From Centroscyllium fabricii (Eukaryota): a DNA stretch of 64,000 bases. The translations under genes were made by a program, and so were the position numbers. Under the pieces are notes generated by a model. That model worked only from the letters and a program-made list of their open reading frames with translations, was not told the DNA's origin and did no database searches. The stretch is taken from contig JBNRSN020000014.1 in NCBI GenBank assembly GCA_051313645.2, forward strand, positions 138,012,001 through 138,076,000, written 5' to 3'. Shown here one piece after another: positions 3,101-53,249 of this stretch; position 1 is the first letter of the stretch; every line of letters starts with the position of its first letter.

Positions 3101-3138
3101 TGGGCCAAAGGGCCTCTTTCTGTGCTGTAAAACTCTAT
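3101..3138 (+). mobile_element. CR1 3' terminal remnant (tail)
   Basis: tgggccaaagggcctctttctgtgctgtaaaactctat matches the CR1 end at 51359-51396. Confidence 0.85.
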
Positions 3139-3717
3139 GGCCGCGAAATTGGCACTTTAGCGCCGGCCCATTAGTGCCAAAAATCGGCGCTAATGGGCCA
3201 GCGCCGACGTAGCACCCAAATTAGCGCCGGGCGCTAAATTTGCCTAGTGGTTAGCGTCGGCGCTAACTGCTTGCGCGCGCTAATTTCAACGCCTGATTCC
3301 TAGCCATGATCCTCGTGCAACACCCGCACAGTCACCTGCGCCACATATTCGTCCGCGGCCGCCGATTTAGCGCCTGCCTCTAACAGCGCCAGCTTTTTCT
3401 CGTGCAGCTGAGTCCATTTGGGGCTGTTTGGACGGTATTTAAAGGGACACACTTCCTGCATTTGGGCCGGCAGCCATTTTGCGTGAGGGAGCCAGGACAG
3501 AGAGAGACATATATCCAGAGACCTGAAAAGCTTTCACAGCTCAGGGAAACCTTGAACCTACCTGCTGCTTCTGCTAAACTCAGAACTTTAAATGTACCAG
3601 CTGCTTTGCTGAGGCTGCAAAGGCTGGCGTTTCAAGTAAACTGCACAAAGTTTCAAAAAGCTTCAAAAAGTTTCAACCTCCACTTTGGCCCTTCAGCCCT
3701 GTGGCTGAGTTGTAAGG

Positions 3718-5306
3718 ATGGGAGCTGTCCTTGGCGGAGATGTTGGTTTGCTGCAGTACGTTGCCATGCAACGGAGAGAACAGCAGAGACGCAGAGCTAG
3801 AAGGCGAGAGCCGGCACCTGTGATTAGCAGAGGCAGGCGGGCACAGAGAGATGTACGCAGGCGACCTTACGGCCAAAGGGTGTTTGGCCAGCAGTATTCC
3901 TACCTCAACATGTCGGAGGAGCAGTGTGTGCGCCGTCTGCGGTTCCGCAAAGAGCCGGTGGAGGAGATCTGCCAGCTGCTTGAGGCCGACCTACAGCCTC
4001 ACCAGAGGACCAGGACCTCTCTGTCAGTTGCAGCCAAGGTGACTGTGGCTCTGAACTTTTATACCACTGGCTCCTTCCAGGCAGGTACCGGGGACATTGC
4101 CAACATTTCCCAGCATGCTGCACATTGCTACATCCGTCAGGTGACAGAGGCACTCTACAGGAGAAGGCGCCAATACATCACCTTCCCCATGGATGGCGAG
4201 CAGCAGAAGCAATGCCATGAGGGGTTTGCGGCCATCCATGGCTTCCCCATGGTGCACGGTGTCATTGATTGCACTCATGTGGCATTGCGGGCGCCTTATC
4301 AGCATACCGCAACAGGAAGGGCTTTCATTCCCTTAACGTCCAACTGGTCTCATCATGGCAGTCAATGCTCATTACCCAGGGAGCACTGCTGCATGATGCA
4401 TTCATCGGGCGGCACGGTGGCACAGTGATTAGCACTGTTGTCTCACAGCACTGGAGACCCGGGTTCAAATCCGGCCTCGGGTCCTATCTGTGTGGAGTTT
4501 GCACATTCTCCCCATGTCTGCGTGGGTTTCCTCCGGCTGCTCCGGTTTCCTCCCACAGTCCAAAGATGTGCGGGTTAGGTTGATTGGCCATGGTAAATTG
4601 ACCCTTAGTGTTTAGGGGGATTGAATATGTGGGGTTACGGGGATAGGGTGGGATATGTGTCGATGCAGGCTCGATAGGGATCGAGCGATATGGGGGGGGC
4701 AGGGGCGGGGTACTGGGTTTGGCTGATCAGCCATGATCTCATTGAATGGCGGAGCAGGCTCGAAGGGCCGAATGGCCTACTTCTGCTCCTAGTTTCTATG
4801 TTTCTATTCTGCGACAGAGCACTGTCAACGACCTGTTTGAGGGACCCAATCACCCAGATGGATGGCTTCTGGGGGACAAGGGGTATGGTGTCACCCCCTG
4901 GCTCATGACACCGCTCCGTGCACCCCACACACCTGCTGAGGAGCGCTACAACATCAGCCATCAGATGACCAGGACCATCATTGAACAGACCATTGGCATC
5001 CTAAAAATGCTGTTCCGCTGTTTGGACCACTCCAGAGGTGCCCTCCAATACGCGCCTGACCGCATTTCACGCTTTGTGGTGGTGTGCTGCATACTGCACA
5101 ACCTGGCAATCCTCAGGACACAGCCACTACTGCCAGATCTTGTAACAGCAGAGGAGGAGGAGGAGGAAGATGCGGAGGATGAGGAGGAGAAAGATGAGGT
5201 GTATGAGGAGGAGGAAGATGAGGTTCATCAACAGCAGCCCCAGCAGAGGAGGCTCCCGCAAACTGGAAGGGCTGTGCGTCAAAGGCTAGTGGACAGCCGC
5301 TTCTAG
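3718..5306 (+). pseudogene. HARBI1-like DDE transposase, frameshifted and split by a SINE
   Basis: CVRRLRFRKE, ALNFYTTGSFQ, GFPMVHGVIDCTHVAL, YRNRKGFHSLNVQLV, HDAFI|LRQS (rejoined across the SINE), [37 protein letters not shown], acidic tail. Confidence 0.93.
4407..4808 (+). mobile_element. tRNA-derived V-SINE (HE1-like) with CR1/HER1-type tail
   Basis: tRNA-like head with A box (tggcacagtgattag) and B box (ggttcaaatcc); V-domain gtgtggagtttgcacattctcccc...ggtttcctcccacag; tail gatcagccatgatctcattgaatggcggagcagg...(tttctatg)n. Confidence 0.92.
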
Positions 5307-5520
5307 GCACCTGCTAATGGGATGAGGATGGAAGGAGGTGTGGCCTTCACCGACACCTGTCCATGTCTTTTCAGTAACTTTACTCCTTATTTCTGTTATT
5401 GTCAATAAATGCACAGTGAGGTTGCAGAAAATAAATGTTTAATACATAACAAATCCCTCCCCCCCCCCCCACAAATCATAAATGAAAAAGCCAACAGGCA
5501 GAATCTGATACCCCCACACC

Positions 5521-7612
5521 CTACTTCTTTTTTTTCTGTGGGGAGCTGGTGGCCTTTCTTCGTTCCCCCCTCCCAACCCTCATGCTCCTTCTCAAAGGCT
5601 CCCCAGTGGGTGCAGCAATGGCACTGGAAGGCTGCGCAGTGGCCGAACTGGACACTGCCGCAACCTTTGGAGGTCGGCCTCGAGCGGTTCTGGGCTTGGA
5701 GGGCCCAGCTTCAGGCTGCTGCACCTGCAAATCTGCAGCAGTCTGCTGAACGGGCGGGGCCAGCAGCAGTGAGGATGTTCGGCTACTGGCACCAGCTATG
5801 CTGCCCTGGTAAGAGAGGCTCCCACCTGCCTCCTCTTCCAATGCAGCCTCACACAATGAGGACCGCTCCTCCTCCTCCCCAGCAATCTGCTGGACCACAG
5901 ATTGCTCGGTGGATGGGGCGCATCCGTCATGGTACCCGGTGCCCGCATGACTCCAGTGAGCGCACGTATGGCGTCACCAATTGGCTGTACTGACTGGAGT
6001 GCAGCAGCCACCGTGTGCAAACCAGCGGTAATGCCGCGGCCAACAGACCCCAGCTCATGGAGGTCAGACCTGATGCCACGGCCAACTACCGCCAGCTCCT
6101 GCAAGCCATCGGGCACTCTCCCCAGCACTGCCAGCATCTCGGTGTGGCGCTGCCCCGCCTGTTTCTCGATTTGCAAGAGCAGCTGCTGCTGCTCCCCACT
6201 CACGCCATCAGGAGTCGATGACCCACTGTCCCTCCGGCCAGCTCGCTGTGGAGCTGCCCCTACCTCCGTGCATTGCTGCACCCCACTGGGGCTTTCCCCA
6301 CAGTCGAGGTGCCACCACTCATCCTCGTCCGACTCCTCTCCTCCCTCTGCACCAGCATCCCCTTCCATTCTCACCTCCTGCTGGTCCTGGCCCATGGGGC
6401 TGCAGTGCTGGGTTGTGGCTTCGGGCGGGTCCTCATCTGCGGAGTCTGCTTCTGAAACGACAGATGCGACACATGAGCACGAGAGCATTTAGCTTCACGA
6501 CAAGGTGGCATGGGAGGCCAAGGTGGTAAGGGAGGTATGATGGACTCAGTGTAGGTACCGACTTCTTTGGATGGATAGTGGCAAAGGCTGCTGCTCTCAG
6601 GAGCAAGAGGAAGCAGAGAGGAGAGGATGGTGAGCAACTCACCACTGTCACCCACGGCGGGGTCGGCATCTCCTGAGGCCACAGGGGTGCTGAGGTGCGC
6701 GCCCATGATGCACTGCAGCTGCTCCTCCATGTGGCTCAGCTGCTGAATCCTGGGAGAGCCCCCCCCCACCCCCCCGTGCGGCCATGCTCCCATCGGTTGG
6801 ATGCCAGCTTGCGCTGCAAGGAACAGGAGAGAATGTGAGGTATAGAAACATAGAAGATAGGAGCAGGAGTAGGCCATTCGGCCCTTCGAGCCTGCTCCGC
6901 CATTCAATGAGATCATGGCTGATCATCCAAACCCAGTACCCCGCCCCTGCCCTCTCCCCATATCGCTTGATCCCTATCGAGCCTACACATATCCCACCCT
7001 ATCCCCCGTAACCCCACATACTCAATCCCCCTAACAGTAAGGGTCAATTTCTCATGGCCAATCAACCTAACCCGCACATCTTTGGACTGTGGGAGGAAAC
7101 CCACGCAGACACGGGGAGAATGTGCAAACTCCACACAGATAGTACCCAAGGCTGGATTTGAACCCTGGTCTCTAGTGCTGTAAGGCAACGGTGCTAACCA
7201 CTATGCCACCGTGCCACCCTACAAAGGAAGTCATGTGTAATAACAGGCTACCATGCATCACCAAGTCCTTCAAGCATAGCACTCAACTACACAAGGCAAC
7301 ATCATTCCTTAATGCAACAGGCTGATGAACAACACAGCCTGAGGGCAATGAGGCTGTGTGGAGGGGAGCTGTAGAACCATGCAGCCAAGCATTTTGCCTC
7401 AGGTGCAAAGAAGCACAGAGTGACACCTGGTTGTACTCACCCTGAGAGCCCTGCATAGGTCGTTGAATTTTTTCCGGCATTGTTCCAAGCTCCTAGGGAC
7501 AATGCTGCTGCTGCTGACCTGCTGGGCAACTTGTAGCCAGTCTGTGGCCCTGATTCAACGTCGGTTTGTGGCCACTGCACGGGTACATCGCTTCCCTGCA
7601 CTCCTCAACAGG
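5521..7612 (-). pseudogene. Harbinger Myb/SANT-like DNA-binding partner gene (spliced, 5'-truncated)
   Basis: Minus strand reads WLQVAQQVSSSSIVPRSLEQCRKKFNDLCRALR then a gtgagt donor (~7440). After the acceptor ttccttgcag (~6814) it reads RKLASNRWEHGRTGGG, then low-complexity/coiled-coil ORFs 5796-6488 and 5521-5898 ending in a basic tail. Inner exon limits are approximate. Confidence 0.82.
6841..7219 (-). mobile_element. HE1-like V-SINE in the intron of the Myb-like gene
   Basis: Reverse complement of the 4407-4808 SINE (tail, V-domain, tRNA head). Confidence 0.92.
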
Positions 7613-7616
7613 CCGA

Positions 7617-10600
7617 ATATCGCTCCTGATATCACTCCCATTATCACACCCAATATTACTCCTGATGTGGAGGTGCCGGTGTTGGACTGGGGTGGACAAA
7701 TGCAAGAAGTCACACAGCACCAGGTTATAGTCCAACAGTTTTATTTTAAAGCTTGTGATTTAAAATAAAACTGTTGGACTATAACCTGGTGTTGTGTGAC
7801 TTCTTGAATATAACTCCTGATATCACTCCTGTTATCAAACCCCGATATCACTCATAGTATCACACCCAATATCATTCCCGAAATCGCTGCTGCTATCACA
7901 GCCGATATCACACCCAATATCACTCTGGATATCACTCCCAACAACACTTCTGAAATTAGCCCCAACATCACACCCGACATCACCTCAGACATCACAACTG
8001 ATTTATGTCCAGAATTCACGCCTAATAAAACACACCCAAGATCAAAACCCAATATCAATCCCAGCATCACAGCTGATATCATATCATTCCCGATTCCACT
8101 CCCGATATCACTCCCGATCTCATATCCAATCTCACACCCGATAGCACTCCCGAGGTTACTTCCATTTTAATACCTAATATCACTCCTGATATCACTTCCG
8201 TTATCACACCGAATATAACTCCTGATATCACTCCCATTATCAAACGCAATATCACTCATGGCATCACACCCAATATCATTCCCAAAATTGCTGCTGATAT
8301 CACACTCAATATCACACCCAACATCACTCTGGATATCGCTACCAACAACACTTCTGAAATTACCCCCAACATCACACCCGACATCACAGGCGATATCACA
8401 CCTGACATCACCTCAGACATCACAACTGATTTATGTCCAGAATTCATGCCTAATACCACACCCCAACATTGCACCCAATACCATACCCCGATATCACACC
8501 CTCTATCACTCCCAATATCACACCCAAGATCAAAACCGACATCAATCCTGACATTACACCCGATGTCACTCCCAACATCACACCCGATATCACACCCGAT
8601 ACCATTGCAGATATCACTCCTGATATCACTAACAATATCACACCAGATATCACTCCTGTTATCACACCCAATATCACTCCTAACATCACACCCGATATCA
8701 CACCCGATATCACTCCTGCTATCACTCCCAAGATCAAAACCGACATCACTCCTGACATCACACCCGATAACTTACTCGATACCACTCCTAATATCACCCC
8801 CGATATCACACCAGATACAGCCCAGATATAATTCCCAATATCACACTTGATCTCATTCCTGTTATCACACCTGATATCCATCCCAATATCACACCCAAAA
8901 TCAATCCTGACACCACACCCAATATTACACTCCCGATTTCACTCCTCATATCACACCCGATATCACACCTGATATCACACCCAAAATCCCTCCCGATATC
9001 ACACCTGCTTTCCCTCTCAATATCACACCCAATGTAACTCATGATATCACTCCCGTTATCACACCCAATATCACTCATGGCATCACACCCAATATCATTC
9101 TCAATGTCACTCCCGGCATCACACCCGATATCATACTTGATACTACTCCAGATATCACTCCCGATGTCACTAATAATATCACACCAGATATCACTCCAGA
9201 CATAGCACCGAACATCACATGTGACATCACACCCGACATTAGACTCAAAATCACACCCGACGTTACTCCAGAAATCATTCCTGATTTCGCTCCCAACAAC
9301 ACACCCAATATAAATCAGGATATCGCTGCCAATATCACACCCGATATCAATCCCGATATAACTCCCAATATCAATCCCGACATCATAGGTGATATCACTC
9401 CCGATGTCACCCCAGACATCACAATTGATGTAAGTCCAGATATCATTCCTGACATCTATACCGATATCACTCCTGACATCACACCAATACCACATCCCAA
9501 TATCACTCACGATATCATTCCTGATATCACACCCAATATCTCTCCCAATATCACACCTGATATCACACCCGATATCACATCCAATATCACTCCCGATATC
9601 TATTCCGATTCCACTCCTGACATCACACCCAATTTCAATCCCGGCATCACAGCTGATATCACATCTGATACCAGTCCTGATATCAATCCTGATCTCACAC
9701 CCGATCTCACACACGATATCACTCCCAATATAATTCCCGAGGTCACTTCCAATATCACACCCAATGTCACTCCTGATATCACTTCTGTTATCACACCCAA
9801 TACCACTCTGGATATCACTCCCGACATCACTTCTGAAATCGCACCTGTGTCACCTCAGACATCACAACTGATGCATGTCCAGACATCATGCCCAATACCA
9901 CACCCCAACATCACACCTGATATCACACACAATATCACACCCCGATACCATATCCTGATATCATTCCCAATATCACACCCTGTCTCACTCCTGATATTAC
10001 TCCCATTATCACACCCCAATATCACACCACAATATCACACCCGATATCACACCCCAATAACACGCCCATATAACACACTTCGATATCACACCCTGATATC
10101 ACACCCCGATATCACACGCCAATATCACTCCCAATATAATTCCAGAGGCCACTACCATTATCACACCCGATATCACTCCTGATATCAATCCCGTAATCAC
10201 AGCCAATATCATTCCCGATATTGCTGTGGATACAACACCCAATATCACACCCAATGCCACTCTGGATGTCACTACCGATATCACTTCTGAAATTACTTCC
10301 AAAATCATAGGTGATATCACACCTGTGTCACCTCAGACATCACAAATGATGCAAGTCCAGACATCATGCCCAATACCACACCCCAACATCACACCCGATA
10401 TCACTCCCGATATCACAGCCTGATACCACACCCTGATATCATTCCTGATAGCAACCCCGATATCACTCCCGATATCACTCCCGCTATCACACCCCGATAC
10501 CACTCTGAATATCACTTCCGACAACATTTCTGAAATTACTTCCGACATCACTGGCAATAGCATACTTGTGTCACCTCAGACATCACAACTGATGCATGTC

Positions 10601-13162: not shown

Positions 13163-13337
13163 AGAGGCAGGAACCCTATCAACATTCAAGAAGCATGCAG
13201 ATGAGCACTTGAAATGCCATAGCATACAAGGCTATGGACCAAATGCTGGAAAATGGGATTAGAATAGACTTGATGGCTGGTGCAGAGGCAATGGGCTGTA
13301 GGACCTCTTTCTGTGCTGTATCGCTCCATGAATCTAT
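13163..13337 (+). mobile_element. CR1 3' end fragment (tail resumes at 14181-14198)
   Basis: agaggcaggaaccctatcaacattcaagaagc...gacctctttctgtgctgta aligns with 51226-51396; tatgtctctatgactcta follows the MITE. Confidence 0.9.
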
Positions 13338-14180
13338 GGCCGAAAAAATGGCACTCTAACGCCGACCGATTAGCGCCCGAAAATGGGCGCTAGAGGTTTT
13401 AGTGCCGGCGCCAAAAGATTTGCGCTGTGCCGAAAATTCGGCAAGCGATTAGCGCTGGTGCTAACTGTTAGTGCGCGCTATTTGGTGCGCCTGAATCCTT
13501 GCTGATATCCTGGTGCAACGCCCGCCCCCAGGGCTGCACCCGAAATTGATGAGTGGCCGCCTAACTAACGCCCAGCGCGGCCCGCGGCAGCTTTCACAAA
13601 CGCAGCTGAGGTGATGTGGGGCCGCTGGGGCGTTCTTTAAAGGGAGACACTTCATCCCTTTCATGCGGTGGCCATTTTGTGGGCGATCGGAGACAGACAG
13701 AGGGATGTTAGGAGAGATACAGAGAGAGACAGAGGGAGGTGAGGGGAGATCGGTGACAGACAGAGGGAGGTTGGGATAGTTGCAGAGAGAGACAGAGTGA
13801 GGTGACGGGAGATCGGAGACAGACAGAGGGAGATGAGGAGAGCTACAGAGAGAGAGAGGCAGGTGAGGAGAGATACAGAGAGCGAGAGAGAGAGGTAAGG
13901 AGACATCATATACTGTTTCCCCTCCCCCTTTAAGAGCTGACCGGCAGCGCCAGCATTGCTGGGAAGGCCAGGAGTGGCAGATGGAGCACTGTGCCTGTGC
14001 TCGCCACTTAGCGCCTGAATATTAGCCGTTTGCACCTGTGCAATGCTTGATTTAGTGCTGTAACCTGCAAGGCCGACGCTAAAGCGAATATCGGGGGCTC
14101 CGGCAGATATTTGCACCTGGCACTAATTTTAGTGTGCCGAGGTTAGCGCCCCAATCCGTGCGCTGACCAATTTCTTGGCC
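13338..14180 (+). mobile_element. Non-autonomous Harbinger (MITE), subfamily A
   Basis: Termini ggccgaaaaaatgg ... ccaatttcttggcc, flanked by TAT on both sides; ends homologous to the 3139 element; internal GA-rich minisatellite ~13686-13900. Confidence 0.9.
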
Positions 14181-14478
14181 TATGTCTCTATGACTCTACC
14201 AGATCCTAATATCACACCCTGATATCACACCCTTATATCATACTCCAATATCACCCCTGATATCACACCCCGATATCACTCCCTGGTATCAATCCTGATA
14301 TCACACCCAATATCACTCCCGATATCACACCCCAATATTACACTCTGATATCACACCTCGATATCACTCCCGCTAACACACTCTGATATCACACATGGAT
14401 ATCACACCCGATAGCACACCCGGATATCACATTCTGATCTCGCTCCCAATATCACACCTTGAAAACACACCTCAATAT

Positions 14479-14890
14479 CATAGAAACATAGAAACATAGA
14501 AACTAGGAGCAGGAGTAGGCCATTCGGCCCTTCGAGCCTGCTCCGCCATTCAATGAGATCATGGCTGATCATCCAAACCCAGTACCCCGCCCCTGCCCTC
14601 TCCCCATATCCCTCGATCGCTATAGAGCCTCCATCAACACATATCCCACCCTATCCCCGTAACCCCACCTATTTAATCCCCCTAACACTAAGGGTCAATT
14701 TATCATGGCCAATCAACCTAACCCCGCACATCTTTGGACTGTGGGAGGAAACCGGAGCACCCGGAAGAAACCCACGCAGACACGGGGAGAATGTGCAAAC
14801 TCCACACAGATAGGACCCGAGGCTGGATTTGAACCCGGGTCTCCAGTGCTGTGAGGCAACAGTGCTATCCGCTGTGCCACCGTGCCGCCC
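14479..14890 (-). mobile_element. HE1-like V-SINE, full length
   Basis: (catagaaa)n tail, V-domain and tRNA head ending gtgccgccc on the plus strand. Confidence 0.93.
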
Positions 14891-32000: not shown

Positions 32001-32562
32001 TATCACAGCCCGATATCACACCTGATATCAAATCCCAATATCACATTCTGATATCACACCCTAATATCACAGCCCAATGTCACATCCCAATATAAAACCT
32101 CAATATCACACCCCGCTATTACCACCTGATATCACACATCAATATCACACCCAATATCACACCTAGATAGCACATGCTGATATCATACTTTGATATCACT
32201 CCCGATATCATACCTCAATATCACACTCCGATATTACACCACGCTATCACACCATGATATCACACCCGATATCACACCCGATATCACATTCGATATCACA
32301 CCCCAATAACACACATCGATATCATACCCCGATATCACACCCCGATATCACACATGATATCACCCTGATATCACACCCAGACAGCATACCCCAATTTCAC
32401 TCCCGCTATCACTCACGATATCACACCCCGATATCACACCCTGATATCACACCCCAATATCACACCCTGATATCATTCCTGATATCACACTCCGATATCA
32501 CACCCCAATATCTTTCCCAATATCACACCTGATAACACACCCTGATATCACTCCCGATATCA

Positions 32563-33439
32563 CACTTTCACTTTCACTTTCAAATAGCTTTATTGGCATG
32601 AATGGTATCAACCGTTGTTGCCAAAGCATTACAAAAATGGTACATCAATAACAATACAAACAAAATAAGTATAACATTTAACTGGACTTAGGTTAACATA
32701 CATAAGAATAATACATTCGTAGACGTACTACATAGAATAATACATTAGTAGCATTATTGACACCCGTACATTAGTTACGTACACATGTACATTTATACCC
32801 GCATATAGAGCTTGTATGCTCATCCTAGCTTCAATGTCAATGTTCACTGGTTGTCCCTCTGCTTATGGCAAGCTGTGACGTAGTTTGCCGCAAGTTTTAT
32901 ACATTCCTTCTGTTCCCCTAGTAGGTATGGGAGTTTCTGGTGGTCGGTCAAATTTTTGAATTCAGGGCATGCTGTTGCGAATTTTGGGAAGAAATTTCCC
33001 CTTATTCCCTGATAGTTTTCGCAGGTTGTGAGGAAGTGCAGCTCTGTCTCCACCACTCCCTGACTGCAGTGGGAGCACAGCCTTTCCTCTCTGGGCAGCC
33101 AAGTCTTTCTGTGTCTGCCTTTTTCGATGGCTAGGCTGTGCTCGCAAAGTCTGTACATTGTCAGCGTTTTTCTCAGTTTTCTATCTTTCACCATGGACAG
33201 GTAGTCTGCCATGGTGTACTGTCTGTTTAGGGCCAAGTAGCAATCTAGTTTGATTTGGGTTTTTGTCGTTTCTGTCCAGTAGTTCAGGTATTTTTCTTTT
33301 TGTTGAGTAATAATTGTGTTGGGTCGGATTCTGAGTGCTAGGGCGTCACTGTCCAGGGGCTGGTTGTTACCAATAGTGTTAGTGGTTTTTCCGCTAAGTT
33401 GGTTGTTAACAGTAGTGTTATTAGTAACTTCGCTAAGTC
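32563..33439 (-). mobile_element. RTEX-like LINE 3' fragment, (GAAAGT)n tail
   Basis: ORF 32844-33236 has YRL.EHSLAIEKGRH...LCSHC...ETELHFLTTC (C-terminal CCHC finger); near-identical to the 3' part of the 35795 copy. Clade is inferred. Confidence 0.85.
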
Positions 33440-35560
33440 ACACCCTGATATCACACCCCAATATCACACCCCAATATCACATTCCAATATAAAACCTCAA
33501 CATCACACATCGATATCACACCCCACTATCACATCCCGATATCACACACTCAATATTAAACCCAGACATCACACCTGATCTCACTCCTGATATCATACAC
33601 TGATATCACAGCCCGATATCACACCTGATATCTAGTCCCGATATCACATCCTGATATCACAACCAAATATCACACCCTAATGTCACATCCTGATATAAAA
33701 CCTCAATATCACAACTTGATATCACACCCCGCTATCACACCCTGATATCACACCCAATATCACACCCAGACAGCACATGCCGATATCATACTTTGATATC
33801 ACTCCCGATATCATACCTCGATATTACACACTGATATCACACCCCAATATCACACCTGATATCACACCCGATATCACATTCGATAACACACCCCAATAAC
33901 ACACATCAACATCAAACCCCGATATCAAGCTCCGATATCACACCCTGATATCACACACGATATCACACCCCGATATCACACCCAGACAGCACACCCCAAT
34001 TTCACTCCTGATATCACTCCCAATATCACACCTCGATATCATACCCAATGTCACACCTTGATATCACACCCTGATATCACACCCCGATATCACACCTGAT
34101 CTCACTCCTGATATCACGCACTGATATCACAGCCCGATATCACACCTGATATCAAATCCCGATATCACATTCTGATATCACACCCCAATATCACACCCCA
34201 ATGTCACATCCCAATATAAAACCTCAATATCACACCCCGATATCACACCCCACTATCATACCCTGATATCACACATCAATATCACACCCAATATCACACC
34301 TAGATAGCACATGCTGATATCATACATTGATATCACTCCCGATAGCATACCTCAATATCACACTCCGATATCACACCACGATATCACACACAATATCACA
34401 TCCCGATATCACACCCAGACAGCACACTCCAATTTCACTCCCGATATCACTCCCGATATCACACCCCGATATCACACCCGATGTCACACCTTGATAACAC
34501 ACCCCAATATCACACCCCAATATCATTCCTGATATCACACCCCGATATCACACCTCAATATCCAACCCCAACATCACACCCCGATATCAATCCACAATAT
34601 CACATCACATTCCCACACCCCGATATCACTCCGCGATATCACACCCCGATATCACAGTCAATATCACACCCCAACACCAAACCCAATATCAGACCTCGAT
34701 ATCACACCCCAATATCACACGCTGATATCACACACCGATATCAACCCCAATATCACACCCCAATATCACTCCCGATCTCAAACCCTAATATCACATCATG
34801 ATATCACACCCCTATATCATATATCGATATCACTCCGGAACTCACACTTCGATATCATACCCCGATATCACTCCCTACTGATATCACATGTGATATCACA
34901 CCCGAGCATCAGACCCGATATCACACTCCGATTTCACACCTAGATATCACACTCCGATGTCAGTCCCGATATCATACCTTGATATCACACTCTGATATCA
35001 CAGCCCAATATCACACCCGATATCACACCCCGATATCACATTCGATATCACACCCCAATAACAAGTCCTGATATAACACCTCAATATCATACCCTGATAT
35101 CACACCCAGATAGCATACCCCGATATCACTCCTGATATCACTCCCGATATCACTCCCGATATCACACCCAATATCAAAGCTGATGTCACACCTCGATTTC
35201 ACACCCCGATATCACACCCGATATCACACCCCGATATCATTCCTGATATCACACCCCGATTTCACACCTCGATATCACACCCCAACATCACACCCCGATA
35301 TCAATCCCCAATATCACATCACATTCTCACACCCCGATATCCCTCCTCAATATCACAACCCAATATCACACCCGATATCACACCCTGATATCAATCCCCA
35401 ATATCATATCCCATTGTCACACCCCAATATCATGCCTCGATATCACAGCCAATATCACAACCCTACATCAAACCCGATATCACACCTCGATATCACACCC
35501 CAACATCACACCCTGATATCAATCCCCAATATCACATCACATTCTCACACACCGATATCA

Positions 35561-38500
35561 ACATAGAATCATAGAAGATAGGAGCAGGAGTAGGCCATTC
35601 GGCCCTTCGAGCCTGCTCCGCCATTCAATGAGATCATGGCTGATCTTACACGTTCAGTACCCAGTCCCTGCCTTCTCCCCATATCCCTTAATCCCTTTAG
35701 CCTGAAGAAATATATCCAGTTCCCTCTTGAATATATTCAATGAACTGGCCTCCACCGCCCTCTGTGGCAAGGAATTACACAGGTTCACCACTCTTCACTT
35801 TTTCACTTTCAAATAGCTTTATTGGCATGAATGGTATCAACCGTTGTTGCCAAAGCATTACAAAAATGGTACATCAATAACAATACAAACAAAATAAGTA
35901 TAACATTTAACTGGACTTAGGTTAACATACATAAGAATAATACATTCGTAGACGTACTACATAGAATAATACATTAGTAGCATTATTGACACCCGTACAT
36001 TAGTTACGTACACATGTACATTTATACCCGCATATAGAGCTTGTATGCTCATCCTAGCTTCAATGTCAATGTTCACTGGTTGTCCCTCTGCTTATGGCAA
36101 GCTGTGACGTAGTTTGCCGCAAGTTTTATACATTCCTTCTGTTCCCCTAGTAGGTATGGGAGTTTCTGGTGGTCGGTCAAATTTTTGAATTCAGGGCATG
36201 CTGTTGCGAATTTTGGGAAGAAATTTCCCCTTATTCCCTGATAGTTTTCGCAGGTTGTGAGGAAGTGCAGCTCTGTCTCCACCACTCCCTGACTGCAGTG
36301 GGAGCACAGCCTTTCCTCTCTGGGCAGCCAAGTCTTTCTGTGTCTGCCTTTTTCGATGGCTAGGCTGTGCTCGCAAAGTCTGTACATTGTCAGCGTTTTT
36401 CTCAGTTTTCTATCTTTCACCATGGACAGGTAGTCTGCCATGGTGTACTGTCTGTTTAGGGCCAAGTAGCAATCTAGTTTGATTTGGGTTTTTGTCGTTT
36501 CTGCCCAGTAGTTCAGGTATTTTTCTTTTTGTTGAGTAATAATTGTGTTGGGTCGGATTCTGAGTGCTAGGGCGTCACTGTCCAGGGGCTGGTTGTTACC
36601 AATAGTGTTAGTGGTTTTTCCGCTAAGTTGGTTGTTAACAGTAGTGTTATTAGTAACTTCGCTAAGTCCTAGGACTAGTTGGTTGATGGGACTTCTTTTT
36701 ATGTTCGCTTCTTGGCATTTCAGGGCTTTGTAGTGGTAACTGTGAGGGTTGCTCAGTTTTAGGTGTTTCCAGAATTTGATTGCTCTTTTTTGGATTTTAA
36801 ATAGTAGTGGATATTGGCCTAACTCTGCCCTGCATGCATTGTTTGTGGTTTTCCTCTGAGTCCGAAGGATACTCTTACAGAACTCAGCATGCAGGGTCTC
36901 AATTGGGTGTTTGTCCCATTTTGCAAAATCTTGGTGTGATAGCAGACCCCACACCTCGCTGCCATAAAGTGCAATTGGTTCAATTACAGAGTTAAAGATT
37001 TTGATCCAGATGCCCGGTGGAATGTCTATTTGGATTGTCTTCTTAATGGCATAGAATGCCCTTCTCGCTTTCTCTTTCAGTTCGTTCACGGCCAAGTGAA
37101 AATTTCCCGTGGAGCTGATTTTTAACCCTAAGTATGTGTAGTTTGTAGTTTGTTCAATTAGTGTTGCTCCTAGTGTGTAGTTTGTTTTGGTTCCCTGATG
37201 TTTGGTTCTTTGCTGGAATACAAGAACCTTGGATTTTTTGGGGTTTATTTTCAATGCCCAATTCTGGCAGAATGACTCTAACCGATCGAGGTTCTGTTGT
37301 AGACCCTCCTCTGTCGGTGACAGTAGGACTAGATCATCTGCATACAGGAGGAATTTGACCTCGGAGTCATGTAGGTCGAGGCCCGGTGCTGTAGATTGTT
37401 CCAGTGTTTTTGCCAGTTCATTTATATAGATGTTAAAAAGAGTTGGTGAGATAGATGAGCCCTGTGCCACGCCACGTCTCTGTGGGAAGTATTTTGTTTG
37501 TTTATCTCCGATTTTAACTGCACATTTGTTTCCTGTGTGAAGAATTTCCTCCTCATCTCAGTCCTACAAGGCTTACCCCTTATCCTTAGACTATGCCCCC
37601 TGGTTCTCGACTCCCCGGCCATCGGAAACATCCTTTCTGCATCTAACCTGTCCAAGCCTGACAGAATTTTATAAGTCTCGATGAGATCCCCTCTTAATCT
37701 TCTAAACTCCAGCGAGTATAAGCCCAGACTACACAATCTCTCCTCATAAGTCATTCCTGCCATCCCAGGTATCAGCCTGGTGAATCATCGCTGTACTCCC
37801 TCCATGGCAAGAACATCCTTCCTCAGATGCGGCGACCAAAACTGCACACAATACTCAAGGTATGGCCTCACCAAGACCCTGTACAGCTGCAGCAAGACAT
37901 CCCTATTCCTATACTCAAACCCTCTTGATATAAAGGCCAACTGGTGCACAAGAACACCCAAATCTCTTTGCACTTCCCCATCTCCCAATCTATTGCCGTT
38001 CAAATAATACTCTGCCTTTCTGTTTTTGCTACCAAAGTGGATAACCTCACATTTATCCACATTATAGTGCATTTGCCATGTGTTCGCCCAATCCCCCAAT
38101 CTGTCCAGGTCGCTCTGGAGCTTCCCGACATCCTCCTCAGAGCATACTCCCCCTCCAAGCTTAGTGTCATCTGCGAATTTGGAGATGTTACATCCAATTC
38201 CCTCATCCAGGTCATTAATATATATTGTGAACAGCTGGGGTCCCAGTACCGACCCCTGTGGTACCCCACTAGTCACTGCCCGCCAATCAGAAAATGACCT
38301 GTTTATCCCAACTCTCTGTTTTCTATCTGCCAACCAGTTCTCTATCCACGCCAATACCTTGCCCCCAATCCCATGAGCCTTAATTTTGCCTGCCAATCTC
38401 CTATGAGGGACCTTGTCAAAGGCTTTCTGGAAGTCCAGATAAACCACATCTACTGGCTCTCCCCTATCTATTTTATCGGTTACATCCTCGAAGAATTCCA

Positions 38501-42113: not shown

Positions 42114-42759
42114 CCCTGATATCACACACGATATCACAACCCGATATCACACCCAGACAGCACACCCCAATTTCACTCCTGATATCACTACCGATATCAC
42201 AACCCGATATCATATTCGATATCACACACCAATAACAAGTCCTGATATAACACCCCAATATCACACACCGATATCACACACAATAACACATCCTGATAAC
42301 ACACCCAGATAGCACACCCTGATTTCACTCCTGATATCACACCCGATATCATACCTGATATCACACCTCGATATCACACCCCAATATCACACCTGATATC
42401 ACACCCCAATATCATTCCCGATATCACACCCCCATATCACACCATGATATCACACCACCATGTCACACCCTGATATCACACCCCAACATCACACCCCAAT
42501 ACCACAATCAATATCACGCCCTGATATCACACCCTGATATCATGCCCTAATATCTTTCCCAATATCACACCTGATATCACACCCCAATATTACTCTCGAT
42601 ATCACACCCCAATATCACTCTCGATATCACACACTGATATGACACCCCGATATCAAACCGCAACATCACACACAGATATCACACCCGATATCAAACCCGA
42701 TATCACACCTCAATATCACACCTCGATATCACACCTCGATATCACACCCCGATATCTTT

Positions 42760-43690
42760 CCACTATTAATTAATATCCAAAAAAGAGCCATCAAATTCTG
42801 GAAACATCTAAAACTGAGCAACCCCCACAGCTATCACTACAAAGCCCTGAAATGCCAAGAAGTGAACATAAAGAGAAGTCCCCTCAGTCAACTGGTCCTG
42901 GGACTTAGCGAAGTAACTACTAACACCATTGGTAACAACCAACTTAGGGAAGTAACTACTAACACTATTGGTAACAACCAGCCCCAGGACAGTGACATCC
43001 TAGCACTCAGAATCCCACCCAACACAATTATTACTAAACAAAAAGAAAAATACTTGAATTACTGGACAGAAATGACAAAAACCCAAAACAAACTCGATTG
43101 TTATTTGGCCCTAAACAGACAGTACACCATGGCTGATTACCTGACCATGGTGAAAGATAGCAAACTGAGAAAAACTCTGACAATGTATAGACTTAGTGAG
43201 CACAGCCTAGCCATAGAAAAAGGCAGACACAGAAAGACTTGGCTGCCCAGAGAGGAAAGGCTGTGCTCCAACTGCAATCAGGGAGTGGTGGAGACAGAGC
43301 TGCATTTCCTCACAACTTGCGAAAACTATCAGGACATAAGGGGAAATTTCTACCCAAATTTTGTAACAACATGCTCTGAATTCAAAAATTTGAATGACCA
43401 CCAAAAAAAACCATATCTATTGGGGGAACAGAGGGACTGTATAAAATTAGTGGCAAACTACGTCACAGCTTGCCATAAGCAGAGGGACAACCAGTGACCA
43501 CTGAAGCTAGGAAGAGCATATGAGATCTACATGCGGGTATATATGTATGTGTCTGCATAGTTATCCATTCACTATGTCTAGTTATGCATTTGTATGTCCA
43601 ATTGTATATGTCCTTTTTCTGTGCTTTGGCAACATAAGATGTATCTTGTCATGCCAATAAAGCAATTTGAATTGAATTGAATTGAATTGA
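42760..43690 (+). mobile_element. RTEX-like LINE 3' fragment, (GAATT)n tail subfamily
   Basis: ORF 42862-43497 homologous to 36073-37470; aataaa then ttgaattgaattgaattgaattga. Confidence 0.87.
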
Positions 43691-46600: not shown

Positions 46601-46961
46601 TCCCGATACCACAGACTGATATCACACCCCGATATCACACCCGATATCACACCTCACTATCACACCCTGATATCACACCTTGATATCGCATCCCAATATC
46701 ACATCCTGATATCAAACTTGATACCACACCCCGATATCAAACCCGATATTACTCCCGATATCACAGCCCAATCTAACCCATTGATACCACATCATGATAT
46801 CACACCTCGATATCAATCCCGATATCACATATCGATGTCACACCCCAATATCACGCCCCAATATCACACCCTGATATCAAACCCGATATCACACCATGAT
46901 ATCACACCCCAATATCGCACCCTGATATCACACCCCGATATCACACTTCGATATCACACCC

Positions 46962-47902
46962 TGTGGTGCCCCGATACCCTCTCAGTGCTCCACTGAGTTA
47001 GAAACCCACCACAATCATCATGGCGGCCGACCTTATCAGTGACGCAGACCCCTGCGGCAGGTAATTGAAGACCAATACTTTCCAAGCTATTTCTTCGACA
47101 GGTTCAGCACCATAGAAAGGGCCATGGCACAGAGGCAGAGTGGGGATTTTCCTTTCTCAGGCAGCACACCTGAATGGCATCGACCTGATTACCAAACAGC
47201 CAGAGGAAGCATGGGGAATGCGAGCTCAAGTGGGCTGCATTCCCTAATTGACACTAATCACTCTGGCAGCCTTTTTATACAGAGTGTGGTAATATTAAAC
47301 AGACTTCTGGGGGAAGACTAAGGGGTGAACTCTGTACATGTCACTTCCTGTTTTCTATTCGTATAAATACTGGAACTGCTCAGTATGGGAGAACGCTTCA
47401 CCTGGAAGCATGGTAAAACCCGACTTTGTACATAGTGATAATGTAGCGGATTAAAGCTTTGCTTTAAGTTATTGATGTATCAGACTCCATTATTACATCA
47501 CAGAGCAGAAGGACAAAGAGGGAGTACATTGGACCTCGCTACAGAGAGGATGCTGAACCTCTCCCCGGACCAGAGCCTCCTTTCCTACTCCTTGGGCGGT
47601 AAGCGGCCATTGGCCCAGAAACCTAGAATTTAATAGGAATTCTTGAAGTGAAGCTTGTGAATACTATGGAAGATTGGAATCTGTGAAATGCATGTAGAGT
47701 TGGAGGTGATTCAAGTCTCTGTCACGCCCCAACTAGAGTGCGGTAGCTCTCACCTACAGGAAGAACCTGAGTTGCCTTTTCTTCCCAACTCCTTTCCCAC
47801 ATCTTCTCGAATTAATATTTTTTTCATTGAATTTCTGACTCCAGTTGCTTTGTTTTGGTTTTGCTTTGTTGACCACACCCTCGCATAGCTGGGCAGTCTA
47901 CA
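46962..47902 (+). repeat. 5' LTR of the Gmr1-type element
   Basis: TGTGGTGCCCC...GGGCAGTCTACA; homologous to 53660-54503; TATA-like tataaat at ~47362. Confidence 0.9.
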
Positions 47903-47904
47903 TA

Positions 47905-47921
47905 TGGTGGAGAATGCTGGC
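47905..47921 (+). promoter_or_regulatory. Primer binding site, tRNA-Ala(AGC)-like
   Basis: tggtggagaatgctggc 2 nt after the LTR, complementary to the 3' end of vertebrate tRNA-Ala (...GCCC(A/G)CATTCTCCACCA) with about one mismatch. Confidence 0.8.
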
Positions 47922-47991
47922 TTTCTAACTCCACGCTATTGTGTGTTGACAAAGCAGGATAGAAACGAACAGTCAGGGGAGGAATAGTAAA

Positions 47992-49771
47992 ATGGATCCA
48001 GCAATGAAGGACCCTATCACCGCTCTCCTGCAGGCCCAGGTAACGCTGCAGACAGTGGTGGCTGAACATTGTGCTACATCACAGGCCAGGGAGAAAAAGA
48101 TGAGCCCACATGACTTGTTGACAAAGCTAACGCCCGAGGATGACGTTGAATTGTATCTGGAGCAATTTGAGAGGACGGCACTGTGGGGGAAATGGCTGAG
48201 GGGTGACTGGGGTAGCATCATAGCACCAGTTCTGACAGGGAAAGCACAAAAGGCCTGTTGAGATATGTCTGGCACTGACGCTGCCAATTATACCAAACTC
48301 AAGGCCGCCATCTTGGCCCAATATGGCTATAGTTTGCCAGCAAGAGCCCAGCGCTACCATCAATGGACCTATAACCCCAGCCTCCCTGCTCGAGCCCAAG
48401 TCACCGCCCTGAGCCAGTTGAACCGTAGCTGGCTGGTGGAAGGAGATGGTCCCTACAGAGTGGACTGACTGGTGCTCGACCGATGCACCCAAGCCCTCCC
48501 CCAAGACGCTAAGAGGTACATTGCCCAAAAGTGCCCACAAAGTTTAGAATTATTAATAGCTCTACTTGAGAATCACCAGGCCACCCAGGAGATGTTGCAT
48601 TCCACCCGGCCCGGGATCAAGAGAGTGGCCACCATGGCATCCAAGGCAGAGACAGTCCCCACCAAGTGTCACGGGGGGCCTATTCCTTTATATATGAGAA
48701 GCTGTTTTTGCTGTGTTCCCACAGCTGTTTTCAAGGAATAGGTCCCTAATTAAGTGATTATTGTTTAATTATCGTTGTTATTGTTCTTGTTGTGCTCTGT
48801 CTCAAGCCTCCCTGGATGATTGGCTATCACCCAATAGGGTACTTGCTGGGGTTAGCTTATAATCAGGAGCTTGGCTGAAGACAGATGCTGGATCATTGCA
48901 TCGTAATGCGTTATGGGACTGGACTGCCATTCCATTGTTCTTTCTTCTGGCCACTGGAAGGACGTGGTTTTCAGTTGTGCTGAGTGGAGGCCAGAGGCAG
49001 GGATTTCTGGTGCTCAGCCTGGGTTACTCAACAGGGGCATTGAGGTGGAACGCACTTCCCTCTGCCTTGACAGTGCTTCCTGCTATTGAAGACTCAGATA
49101 CGGACATTCATCTGTTTTGGTAAGGGAGTCCCCCTGCCGGTGTGATCTGGTGCGCTACTGCCAGACGTCCATGGAGTTAAGTCTCTGTGCAAGAGCTGTA
49201 GAAGTAGGACGGACCCATTTCCACTACATGGACATTTCATTTCATCACCCGAACCCTGGTTTGGACAATCGTCATCTAGAAGCATAGCTGTTCCCACTTC
49301 CTCGATGCAGAGGGTGTAAGGAGGTGTTCAGGCTCGTTGAGGAGGACTTGCTCGGTTCTCTTTGGGATTGAACTGTTATGCCAGGACTGGTACTTTGTGG
49401 GAGAATATCGCGCTTGATTGCGTGGCTTCTCTCTATTTCATTTCTCACTGTTTTTGGAAGTTTGTGCCGGTCTGTTTCTAAGACTCGTGTTGTCTGTGTT
49501 CTATATATTATTGTATGTTTAGGGTATTTAATGGGGTTTAGTAATAAAAGTTGTTTAGTTTTATAACGTTTCAGTGTCCCTGCATTTGGGCCCTGCCTTC
49601 ACTCCGATCACACCCCACCGTTACACCAAGAGAGCAACAGGATCTCCTGAGCCCCAACACCCTGGGTCCGCCCTACCCAACCCCTTGATAAACTAGGAAA
49701 ATCAATGTTATTTTGCCTGTGGGAAGGAAGGTCATCTGACTCGAGACTGCCCAGACTAAAATGTAACCATG
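47992..49771 (+). pseudogene. gag with SCAN-like capsid domain and CCHC knuckle (stops; split by a solo LTR)
   Basis: LTKLTPEDDVELYLEQFERTA...W...APVLTGKAQKA; YTKLKAAILAQYG...RYHQW; LDRCTQALP...CPQSLELLIALLE. Confidence 0.8.
48667..49625 (+). mobile_element. Solo LTR (959 bp) inserted in gag
   Basis: TGTCAC...GTTACA termini, 5-bp TSD CCAAG; 3' end (tttcagtgtc..gcatttgggccc) shared with the 41028 LTR. Confidence 0.9.
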
Positions 49772-51396
49772 CTTGAACATATTACCATTGAGCGGGAGGA
49801 GGTACTAGCGGTTTTAGCAGGCTTAAAAGTGGATAAATCCCCAGGCCCGGATGAAATGGATCCCAGGCTGCTGTGAGAGGCAAAGGAAGAGATCGCAGGG
49901 GCTCTGACACAAATTGTCAGGACCTCTCTGGTCACAGGGGATGTGCCAGAGGACTGGAGAACAACTAACATAGTACCACTATTCAATAAAGGTAGTAGGG
50001 ATAAACCAGGGAATTACAGGCCAGTGAGCCTAACCTCAGTGGTAGGGAAATTATTGGAAAAAATTCTGAGGGACAGAATTAGTATTCACTTGGAGAGGCA
50101 AGGATTAATCAAGGATAGTCAGCATGGCTTTGTCAAGGGAAGATCATGTCTGACCAACTTGATTGAATGTTTCGAGGGGGTGACTAGGTGTGTGGATGAG
50201 GGTAGTGCAGTGGATGTGGTATACATGGATTTCAGTAAGGCTTTTGATAAAGTCCCACATAGGAGACTGGTCAAGAAGGTAAGAGCCCATGGGATCCAGG
50301 GCACCTTGGCACCGTGGATCCAAAACTGGCTTAGTGGCAGAAGGCAGAGGGTGATGGTCAAAGGTTGTTTTTGTGACTGGAAGCCTGTGTTGAGCGGGGT
50401 ACCACAGGGATTGGTGCTGGGTCCCTTCCTGTTTGTAGTCTACCTTAATGAATTGGATATGAATGTAAAAGGTATGATCAGTAAGTTCGCTGAAGACACA
50501 AAAATTGGTGGGGTGGTAGATAGTGAGGAGGGAAGCCTCAGTCTGCAGGACGATATAAATGGGTTGGTCAGATGGGCAGAGCACTGGCAAATGGAATTTA
50601 ACCCTGAAAATTGCGAGGTGATGCATTTTGGAAAGACTAACAAGGCAAAGGAATACACAATGAATGGTAAGATCCTAGGAAAGACAAAGGATCAGAGGGA
50701 CCTTGGTGTGCATGTACATAGATCCCTGAAGGCAGCAGGACAGCTGATAAGGTGGTTAAAAAGGCATATGGGATACTTGCCTTCATTAGCCAAGGCATAG
50801 AATATAAGAGCAGGGAGGTTATGATGGAGCTGTACAAAATGTTGGTAAGGCCACAGCTGGAGTATTGTGTGCAGTTCTGGACGCCAAACTATAGGAACGA
50901 TGTGATTGCTTTGGAGAGGGTGCAGATGAGATTCACCAGGATGTTACCTGGGTTGGAGCGCTTCAGCTATGAAGAAAGACTGGACAGGCTGGGGTTGTTT
51001 TCCTTGGAGCAGAGAAGGCTGAGGGGGGACCTGATTGAGATGTACAAAATTATGAGGGGCATAGATAGGGTTGATAGAAAGGAACTTTTTCCCTTGATAG
51101 AGGGGTCAATAACAAGGGGGCATAGTTTCAAGGTAAGGGGCAGGAGGTTTAGAGGGGATTTGAGGAAGAACTTTTTCACCCAGAGGGTGGTTGGAATCTG
51201 GAACTCACTGCCTGAAAGGGTGGTAGAGGCAGGAACCCTCACAACATTCAAGAAGCCTTTAGATGAGCACTTGAGATGCCAAAACATACAAGGCTACGGA
51301 TCAAATGCAGGAAAATGGGTTTAGAATAGACAGGGCTTGATGGCCGGCACGGACACGATGGGCCGAAGGACCTCTTTCTGTGCTGTAAAACTCTAT
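49772..51396 (+). mobile_element. CR1 LINE, 5'-truncated, inserted at the gag/PR boundary
   Basis: ORFs 49943-50800 and 50752-51324 with CR1 RT and C-terminal motifs (FFTQRVVGIWNSLP), 3' UTR and actctat tail. Confidence 0.95.
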
Positions 51397-52325
51397 GGGC
51401 GAACAATTGGCGCCTTAGAGCTGGCCCATTAGCGGCAAATATCGGCGCTAATGGGGCAGCGCCGAAAATCGGCACTAATGGGGCAGCGCCGACGTAGCGC
51501 CCAAATTAGCGCCGGGCGCTAAATTGGACTAGTGGTTAGCGCCGGTGCTAAACCTTAGCGCTGCGCCGCCTGGTGATCAACAATCGTCATGGCAATGCGT
51601 GTGCAACGCCCGCCGGCGGGTTATGCCCGATATTGGGCTTAGCGCGGGGGTTGGTGGAAAGGCGCTATCAGCGCCAGCTTTTGCAAGCGCTGCAGTGGGT
51701 TTGAGTGGCTGCTGCAGCGCTGTTAAAAGGGCCACTCTCCCTCTTCGGTCTGAGCGCGGCCAGCTGATGGGGGGAGTTGGCCTGAGCGGCCAATTGATGA
51801 GAGAGCGGGGAGGGGGGCCGGCTCTCTGATCAGTTGCCGCTGGGGGATCGCCCGACCCCCCCGATCGGGGGGTGTTACACTGGGAAGCTGAGGGGGCTCT
51901 GACTTCCTGAAGATAAATTCAGGAAGAATGAAAACAGAACACAGCGTGATTCCTGACAGAAGACCGCAGATTCGGGGGCCGGCTCTTGGATCAGTTCCCG
52001 TTCTGGGGTTCGGGTGATCCCCCAGCGGCAACTGATCAGAGAGCGCGGAGAACAGCTGCTGCTCTGCTTCCCCTTTAAGGCCTCATCGGCTGTAGAGGCC
52101 ATGGGGAAGCAAGCAGTTAGTGAGGGAGCGCTGCGCCCAGCACGGCCATTAGCGGCAGTATATTGGCCGCCTGGAAGACGTGCAAGGCGTGAATTCATGC
52201 CAAAATTATCAAGGCCACCGCTAGCGCCAATATCGTCTGCATCGGCGCTAATTTAGCGCCGGCGCTAAATTTTAGCACATCGCCAAATTTAGCGCCCAGT
52301 CCGTGCGCTGATGAATTTTTCGGCC
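51397..52325 (+). mobile_element. Non-autonomous Harbinger (MITE), subfamily B, copy 1
   Basis: Termini gggcgaacaattgg ... gaatttttcggcc, TAT on both sides; left ~150 bp homologous to the 3139 element. Confidence 0.9.
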
Positions 52326-52336
52326 TATGACTCTAT

Positions 52337-53239
52337 GGGTGAAAAATTGGCACCTTAGAGCTGGCCCATTAGCGCTGAAAATCGGCGCTAATGGGGCAGC
52401 GCTGACGTAGCGCCCAAATTAGCGCCGGGCGCTAAATTGGACTAGTGGTTAGCGCCGACGCTAAACTTTAGCGCTGCGCTGCCTGGCGATCAACAATCAT
52501 CGTGACAATGCGTGTGCAACGCCCGCCGGCGGGTTACGCCCAGTATTGGGCATAGCGCGGGGGTTGGTGGAAAGGCGCTATCAGCGCCAGCTTTTGCAAG
52601 CGCTGCGGCGGGTTTGAGTGGCCGCTGCAGCGCTGTTAAAAGGGCCACTCTCCCTCTTCGGTCTGAGCGCGGCCAGCTGATGGGGGAAGTCGGCCTGAGC
52701 GGCCAATTGATGAGAGAGCGGGGAGGGTGGCCGGCTCTCTGATCAGTTGCCACTGGGGGATCGCCCAACCCCCCGATCGGAGGGTGTTACACTGGGAAGC
52801 TGAGGGGGCTCTGACTTCCTGAAGATAAATTCTGGAAGACTGAAAACGGAACACAGCGTGATTCCTGACAGAAGACCGCAGATTCAGGGGCCGGCTCTCT
52901 GATCAGTTCTCGATCGGTGGGTCGGGCGCTTCCCCCAGCGGCAACTGACCAGAGAGCACGGAGAACAGCTGCTGCTCTCCGTCCCCTTTAAGGCCTCATC
53001 GACTGCAGAGGCCATGGGGAAGCAAGCATTTAGTGAGGGAGCGCTGCGCCCGGCAACGGCCATTAGTGGCAGCATATTGGCCACCTGGAAGACGTGCAAG
53101 GCGTGAATTCGCGCCAAAATTATCAAGGCCACCACTAGCGCCAATATCGGCCGTGTCAGTGTTAATTTAGCACCTGCGCTAAATTTTAGCCCATCGCCAA
53201 ATTTAGCGCCCAATCCGTGCGCTGATGAATTTTTTGGCC
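52337..53239 (+). mobile_element. Non-autonomous Harbinger (MITE), subfamily B, copy 2
   Basis: Diverged direct repeat of copy 1, separated by tatgactctat and followed by a degenerate tail unit tttgacacta. Confidence 0.9.
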
Positions 53240-53249
53240 TTTGACACTA

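Follow-up and report, generated by a model that had tools for sequence, protein, structure and literature searches.

A decayed Harbinger family frequently occupies the tails of CR1-type LINEs in Centroscyllium fabricii, probably through a symmetric TAT-centred target

Why do four members of one DNA transposon family begin, within 64,000 nucleotides of DNA, at the 3' end of a long interspersed nuclear element (LINE) of the CR1 type? The question is raised by positions 138,012,001 to 138,076,000 of contig JBNRSN020000014.1 (assembly GCA_051313645.2) of Centroscyllium fabricii, the whole stretch analysed here and referred to as the window. An earlier note on this DNA had proposed that the family, a Harbinger, is an oriented and target-specific system that uses the LINE tail as a safe harbour. 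We found the tail to be a very strong insertion hot spot, used in both directions and by more than this family. It is likely that a decayed Harbinger family and its MITEs (short for miniature inverted-repeat transposable elements) insert either way round at a symmetric motif of ~15 bp, mostly centred on TAT, of which the first repeat unit of the CR1 tail would be a near-perfect and therefore often hit copy.

The left ends of the four elements, at 3139, 13338, 51397 and 52337, each abut the ...CTAT of a CR1 3' end in one orientation, so that the reading of the earlier note, by which all start right after the TAT of a CR1 tail, was confirmed at every position. As it also had it, three CR1 copies are occupied: the anchor CTTTCTGTGCTG was found exactly three times in the window (3116, 13307 and 51374, all on the plus strand). 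Its further descriptions likewise held, namely that TAT is duplicated where the right end survives (14181-14183 behind MITE A, 52326-52328 behind MITE B1 and, as TTT, 53240-53242 behind MITE B2) and that different members use different tail units (the coding element and B1 unit 1, MITE A and B2 unit 2). The features concerned are the following, with terminal inverted repeat abbreviated as TIR and target site duplication as TSD.

3100..3138, plus strand: CR1 3' stub of 39 nt whose last part is tail unit 1 (AAACTC-TAT), the site hit by the coding element; 97% identical to the 3' end of a long CR1 copy
3139..7608, plus strand: coding Harbinger copy, decayed, with its left TIR at 3139; the right ~425 bp are lost and satellite follows; delimited by BLAST to the full-length copy at locus L175
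13164..13337, plus strand: diverged CR1 3' fragment, its tail of two units decayed, hit by MITE A in unit 2; 81% identical to a long CR1 copy
13338..14180, plus strand: MITE A, 843 bp, TIRs starting with GGCC, the tail resuming behind the TAT duplicate; recognised by its TIRs and by 68-70% identity to the ends of the L175 element
49869..51396, plus strand: 3' part of a CR1-type LINE with reverse transcriptase, 3' untranslated region and tail unit 1, which may reach further 5'; RVT_1 domain at E=5e-31, 91.6% identity to locus L183
51397..52325, plus strand: MITE B1, 929 bp, in tail unit 1, with TAT duplicated at 52326-52328
52326..52336, plus strand: leftover tail separating B1 and B2 (TAT-GACTC-TAT), with the sole GACTCTAT of the window at 52329
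52337..53239, plus strand: MITE B2, 903 bp, in tail unit 2, followed by TTT as a degenerate TSD; 7.3% divergent from B1

The host LINE, which we take to be a CR1 from features of its tail and 3' untranslated region, carries an RVT_1 domain, is truncated to varying extents at the 5' end and ends in an 8-bp microsatellite tail, (GACTCTAT)n. A CR1 body fragment at 1065-2163, 91% identical to the same CR1 family, lies ~940 bp upstream of the 39-nt stub with a LINE-like piece between them, and fragment and stub may be one disrupted CR1 copy. The 7.3% divergence of B1 and B2 equals that between B1 and its nearest unlinked copies (7.3-8.0%); going by these values, it fits two separate insertions, and an old tandem duplication is also possible.

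The identification of the family as a Harbinger stands. It belongs to the PIF/Harbinger superfamily by its proteins, its TIRs and the length of its TSD: a DDE_Tnp_4 transposase, a Myb/SANT protein and a 3-bp duplication. The coding copy of the window is 90-92% identical to the 4,358-bp full-length element at L175 over element positions 8-3933; its own TSD cannot be checked because the right ~425 bp are lost. At L175, an unbroken transposase open reading frame (ORF) of 422 amino acids (DDE_Tnp_4, PF13359, E=1.6e-32) converges with a Myb/SANT exon (Myb_DNA-bind_5, PF13873, E=7.4e-9). Short TIRs of ~12-14 bp starting with G (GGSYGAAAAATT) are found at both ends of the MITEs and of the L175 element. 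Within the coding copy of the window, two short interspersed nuclear elements (SINEs) accompany the genes.

3718..5306, plus strand: transposase gene, disrupted both by a frameshift and by a SINE, with the motifs VIDCTH, LLGDKGY and IIEQTIG kept; from ORFs and DDE_Tnp_4 at E=2e-18 on the 3' part
4406..4805, plus strand: SINE with a (GTTTCTAT)n tail inside the transposase gene; from a gap in the L175 alignment and its tail
6849..7222, minus strand: second SINE, in the intron region of the Myb gene; from a gap in the L175 alignment and an inverted match to the first SINE
7432..7608, minus strand: what is left of the first exon of the Myb/SANT gene (ORF1), in convergent orientation to the transposase; from its translation and the matching L175 exon

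The exact 25-nt left terminus occurs 1,590 times in the 7.2-Gb genome, and at least 150 coding copies besides that of the window have 87-93% amino-acid identity. The family is large and old; in the set of copies compared, even the nearest pairs are at least 5.7% apart, and the insertions are therefore likely fixed. The transposase has 85 HARBI1-type homologs.

Does the pattern of the window hold for the genome? The exact 28-nt CR1 3' anchor has 14,793 genomic occurrences, of which 1,659 (11.2%) are directly followed by the family terminus pattern and 3,922 (26.5%) by GG. For the GACTC tail, GG is a sound proxy for insertion: foreign sequence was present at 30 of 30 inspected loci of anchor plus GG, 29 of them starting like a TIR or Harbinger element, and none (0/30) was a mutated tail. 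In 18 of these 30 a second end with a TAT-like duplication lay within 1.5 kb, and in 5 of the 18 another element followed directly behind or in a later tail unit. At two loci (L316 and L322) the second element starts right at the duplicated TAT of the first, so that an element's own TSD is reusable as a target. Among the first 30 anchors on one contig (C1), 18 carried an insert (16 in unit 1, 2 in unit 2), and the CR1 copies at those loci measured from 81 to more than 1,500 nt. Occupancy is uneven along the genome, with 15 of 30 anchors followed by GG at 1-42 Mb of C1 (L181-L210) versus 26.5% genome-wide.

One control was a SINE-type tail, whose anchor occurs 232,246 times and bears the family terminus 172 times (0.074%); of 30 such tails inspected, 0 had an element at the first unit. 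The claims of the earlier note that the CR1 (GACTCTAT)n tail is favoured and that chance is an unlikely cause are borne out by these counts. A second CR1 with a GATTCTAT tail, referred to as the GATTC type, has 31,745 occurrences, 499 of them followed by GG. When 30 of these GG loci were inspected, only 4 proved to be elements, the other 26 being variants of the tail or unrelated sequence; 499/31,745 is therefore an upper bound only, and we estimate the element occupancy of these tails at ~0.2%. In 400 kb of evenly spaced background, one pattern found 47 tails of all types, with one of the GACTC type, plus one element-bearing GACTC tail; the same 400 kb held 3 close and 2 more distant family copies. 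As to age, pairwise divergence was 6.9% for the GATTC CR1, 9.1% for the GACTC CR1 and 12.4% for the SINE sample (interquartile range 6.9-16%).

Could a single CR1-Harbinger chimera have been copied as a unit, the case that the earlier note had set against its own proposal? The window itself offers nothing in its favour beyond the shared junction. In 50 distinct occupied tails, the end next to the CR1 body was a left end in 16, a right end in 20 (p=0.62) and an end of other families in 14, and the inserts formed 18 sequence clusters. The varied CR1 truncation (5' ends from 81 to more than 1,500 nt among occupied tails), both orientations and the 18 clusters imply that the insertions are independent, unoriented and from many families; in addition, the tail continues past the element, and the flanks differ. 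The chimera is thus extremely improbable, and we rejected a single chimeric origin on its differing truncation points, orientations and family diversity. The other tail-inserted families, with their G-rich TIRs and TAT duplications, are presumably Harbingers too.

The sites were also viewed from the side of the element. The first 92 listed exact-terminus matches on C1, minus L005 and L023, gave 90 left-flank loci, at which the TSD was TAT in 29, ATA in 27, ATT in 8, AAT in 6, TAA in 5, TTA in 2 and CWG in 0; TWA, the TSD of the narrow PIF/Harbinger group, accounts for 7 of the 90. The near-equal TAT and ATA counts imply insertion in both directions. A right end was located within 1.5 kb in 49 of the 90 loci. 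The right-end pattern (476 matches) contributed 30 more loci, 13 of them two-ended and 8 of these new, which gave 57 position-ordered two-ended sites (49 plus 8, loci without a second end being excluded). The GACTC CR1 tail accounted for 12 of the 57, GTTTC SINE-type tails for 9, GATTC CR1 tails for 4 and tail-like sequence for 2, whereas the other 30 were not in a tail of any kind; 27 of 57 were therefore at a tail or tail-like site. Best-hit loci (15 of 29) and coding loci (8 of 20) enlarged this to a set of 80 sites, composed of 39 non-tail, 20 GACTC CR1, 14 GTTTC SINE-type, 5 GATTC CR1 and 2 tail-like sites. The 3-bp flanks of these 80 were identical in 53, differed by one mismatch in 17 and by more in 10. 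Even at non-tail sites TAT/ATA made up 42 of 78 TSD copies, and all tail types seen share TCTATG.

These counts bear on the proposal that the system is oriented and specific to the CR1 tail. The shared orientation is real for the four members in the window and does not extend beyond it (16 left, 20 right and 14 unassigned ends in 50 tail insertions, beside 29 TAT and 27 ATA left flanks), and the family cannot be called target-specific with 30 of 57 sites outside any tail, 12 of 57 in the GACTC CR1 tail and other families in the same tail. Recognition of the actual CR1 3' end by the element, in the way that Dada recognises small RNA genes, might be suggested by the ~15,000-fold enrichment set out below, by four of four members in the window and by a residual preference over other tails. 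Both orientations and the non-tail majority contradict it, as do CR1 stubs of 39-86 nt that suffice as targets and a one-base change in the motif that shifts occupancy as the non-tail profile predicts. We consider such recognition very unlikely; for orientation and exclusivity it is already largely refuted.

Two further observations concern other sites. One position in an unrelated repeat (…AAAGAAATCTC-TAT) was taken by three family insertions, at L102, at L116 (junction 1500, element orientation) and at L147; the insertions are independent, and with them this repeat is a second hot spot, distinct from the CR1 tails. A further abundant TIR family, whose ends read GGSCCAGAAWTT, is inserted at AAT/ATT and not TAT (L123, L130, L135, L136, L148, L156 and L159), and target centres therefore vary among the Harbinger-like families of this genome.

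What, then, do the tails offer? We built a symmetric profile from non-tail sites alone (78 half-sites from 39 loci), a small sample in which positions were taken as independent and which is blurred by decay. From position -6 to -1 it reads A.56, A/G.72, A.66, C/G/T, A/T.86 and C.73, with information reaching position -6; the target is ~AAASWC-TAT-GWSTTT and the best half-site TAAAGAC. At position -2, A (.48-.51) is preferred over the T of the tail (.36-.38). As a check on circularity, the 5 of 39 loci that were tail-like or adjacent to an element were dropped, upon which the predictions fell by about a third and the motif and the A/T ratio held. Tail unit 1, which reads AAACTC-TAT-GACTCT (A variant) or TAACTC-TAT-GACTCT (T variant), comes close to the profile on either side, GACTC being almost self-complementary. 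After normalisation to background, the enrichment that the profile predicted at unit 1 was, for the T variant, 11,900 (3,600-27,700) and, for the A variant, 30,300 (9,400-66,700), or 7,600 and 20,800 with the five doubtful loci dropped; the prediction at the tail is ~11,000-17,000-fold. The observed enrichment is ~15,000 (0.112 over 3 close copies per 400 kb), uncertain by a factor of ~5. A short symmetric motif, derived with no tail site in the sample, explains the enrichment to a large extent.

The motif also predicts differences between tails. The A variant constitutes 4,236 of the 14,793 anchors (28.6%) but 23 of the 45 tails that the family occupies on C1 as far as 245 Mb, an out-of-sample odds ratio of 2.6 (1.4-4.9, p=0.0015) where the profile predicted 2.5-2.7; occupancy depends on this one base. 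The use of unit 1 over unit 2, seen above, agrees with the profile scores. Survival bias, in which a more even spread of insertions was thinned by the purging of those outside CR1 tails, would fit the local variation of occupancy on C1. Nevertheless, selection is unable to produce a 100-fold gap between equally neutral tails or a 2.6-fold one between one-base variants, or to fill a quarter of the sites, which leaves this explanation highly improbable.

Most likely, the tails fill since they happen to spell the preferred target and not since the elements seek the LINE. A symmetric transposase complex would read two DNA half-sites, ~AAASWC on each side. GACTC being almost its own reverse complement, (GACTCTAT)n would present GACTC-TAT-GACTC at every unit, with unit 1 probably best as AA precedes it. 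Each insertion would leave more TAT units free, tails would fill in chains, and related Harbinger families with the same preference would share the site; recognition of CR1 as such would not be needed.

Several points weigh against this account. The figure for the observed enrichment comes from 3 background copies (5 if the two more distant ones are counted). SINE-type and GATTC tails were predicted to lie 12-14-fold below the T variant (bootstrap to 92-104), and the observed deficit is ~100-fold for the SINE-type tail and ~125-fold for the GATTCTAT CR1. Age may account for this avoidance at most partly, the SINE sample being of mixed age; the GATTC CR1 is younger than the GACTC CR1, and SINEs have twice inserted in the coding element of the window. 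A decayed training set also flattens a profile. Tails of the A variant are slightly older, at 9.5% against 8.5% for the T variant, and when all GG elements are taken together the odds ratio of the A variant is no more than 1.5 (0.99-2.3). The under-predicted avoidance and these caveats on the A variant leave room for a sharper or co-adapted specificity.

Co-adaptation would mean that the target centre of the lineage moved to TAT, and its flanks were adjusted, because CR1 tails offered a renewable, harmless target. The prevalence of TAT/ATA even at non-tail sites argues for it, as do the TCTATG common to all tail types, the varying centre among families indicated by Harbinger-like background ends at AAT/ATT, the very high occupancy of 26.5% and a preference for the GACTC tail beyond the point estimate of the profile. 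Moreover, TAT/ATA is not among the PHIS TSD types TWA, AT, ANT, CWG and TNA given in the available parts of PMC4482050. Yet the best non-tail half-site, AAAGAC, is the flank of zebrafish Harbinger3_DR and not the AAACTC/TAGAGTC of the tail, position -2 favours A over the tail's T, half of the insertions lie outside tails, and younger CR1 and SINE tails are scarcely used. We regard co-adaptation as rather unlikely. Its wider form, a chondrichthyan guild of Harbingers living on a LINE 3' microsatellite as a renewable safe harbour, with motif and tail tracking each other over time, appears similarly doubtful.

The window has other features besides these elements. Its bulk (1-1000 and ~7620-49000) consists of satellite with a unit of 12-13 bp (GATATCACACCC-like), in which there are higher-order duplications; this satellite follows the broken end of the coding Harbinger and leaves the CR1 tails as the few good local targets. 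A 51-bp hairpin element, perfect-looking, lies at 7700-7809, with arms that are 96% complementary and a loop of 8 nt. A repeat of ~750 bp is present in four copies in two orientations at ~90% identity (32837-33442, 36066-36811, 42759-43685 and 57232-58130). Past MITE B2, the region 53243-53800 resembles by eye the internal region of a long terminal repeat retrotransposon, with a protease-like motif, and may have truncated the tail.

One transposon class here decides where another lands, with a quarter or more of the tails of a LINE family filled, often in chains. Tail filling shapes the nesting of repeats in this large genome and can confuse repeat annotation by suggesting CR1-MITE chimeras that are false. 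Since the landing sites are near-identical, number in the tens of thousands and vary naturally by one base, they amount to a ready-made in vivo test of how Harbingers read their target. The mechanism itself is already known. Extended target preference is established in Harbingers, and the present case is mostly one of a TAT centre supplied ready-made by an abundant LINE tail, the tails acting as landing strips.

How does this compare with known systems? In the literature searched, with Repbase and Dfam outside its scope, we found no paper on Harbingers in CR1 tails. The closest database relatives of the transposase are chondrichthyan proteins of sharks and rays called 'putative nuclease HARBI1' (identity up to 63%), automatic names with no target site described. 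For the systems below, the comparison covers the available parts of the cited papers. Target-specific DNA transposons include Dada in small RNA genes, Pokey in 28S rDNA and CryptonV in microsatellites (PMC8869645). The resemblance to them is loose, a DNA transposon concentrated in a multicopy repeat via primary sequence. In contrast to such repeat-specific elements, about half of the copies lie elsewhere, orientation is not fixed and the target is the tail of another transposon: neither a single repeat that holds most copies, as in the Dada or Pokey type (the GACTC tail has 12 of 57), nor the fixed orientation put forward in the earlier note (16 vs 20, p=0.62) was found.

Within the PHIS groups, PIF/Harbinger uses TWA, Pangu ANT, NuwaI CWG and NuwaII C|TNA|G (PMC4482050). 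A DDE transposase, a Myb/SANT partner and a 3-bp TSD are shared with these groups, and a conserved C before and G after the TSD with NuwaII. Unlike the named groups, C|TAT|G is not a named type, and the TSD definitions of TWA and CWG (NuwaI) do not fit the family; a whole-word search of three supplements of PMC4482050, with figures outside its scope, found no TAT or ATA. Like plant PIF/Pong/mPing and Tourist MITEs, the family combines ORF1 (Myb) and transposase, has MITE offspring and shows a preference beyond the 3-bp TSD; the plant elements differ in their TTA/TAA centre and shorter motif, in having no LINE-tail hot spot reported, and from the MITEs here of 700-1,100 bp (PMC2836001). For the superfamily, an extended target preference is established, covering 9 bp in plant elements and 15 bp in those of vertebrates (PMC2836001).

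The nearest parallel in target is zebrafish Harbinger3_DR, whose target is AAACAC-CWG-GTCTTT, that is AAACACCWGGTCTTT (PMC3016246, PMC2836001). Both systems have two genes, a palindromic target of ~15 bp and a 3-bp TSD, and their flanks match, the best non-tail half-site AAAGAC being the right flank of Harbinger3_DR read outward. They differ in the centre, CWG there and TAT/ATA, also AAT/ATT, here, where a LINE tail supplies tens of thousands of sites. With flanks kept and the centre changed, it becomes testable which protein reads which part of the target, and this could be of use in site-biased gene delivery.

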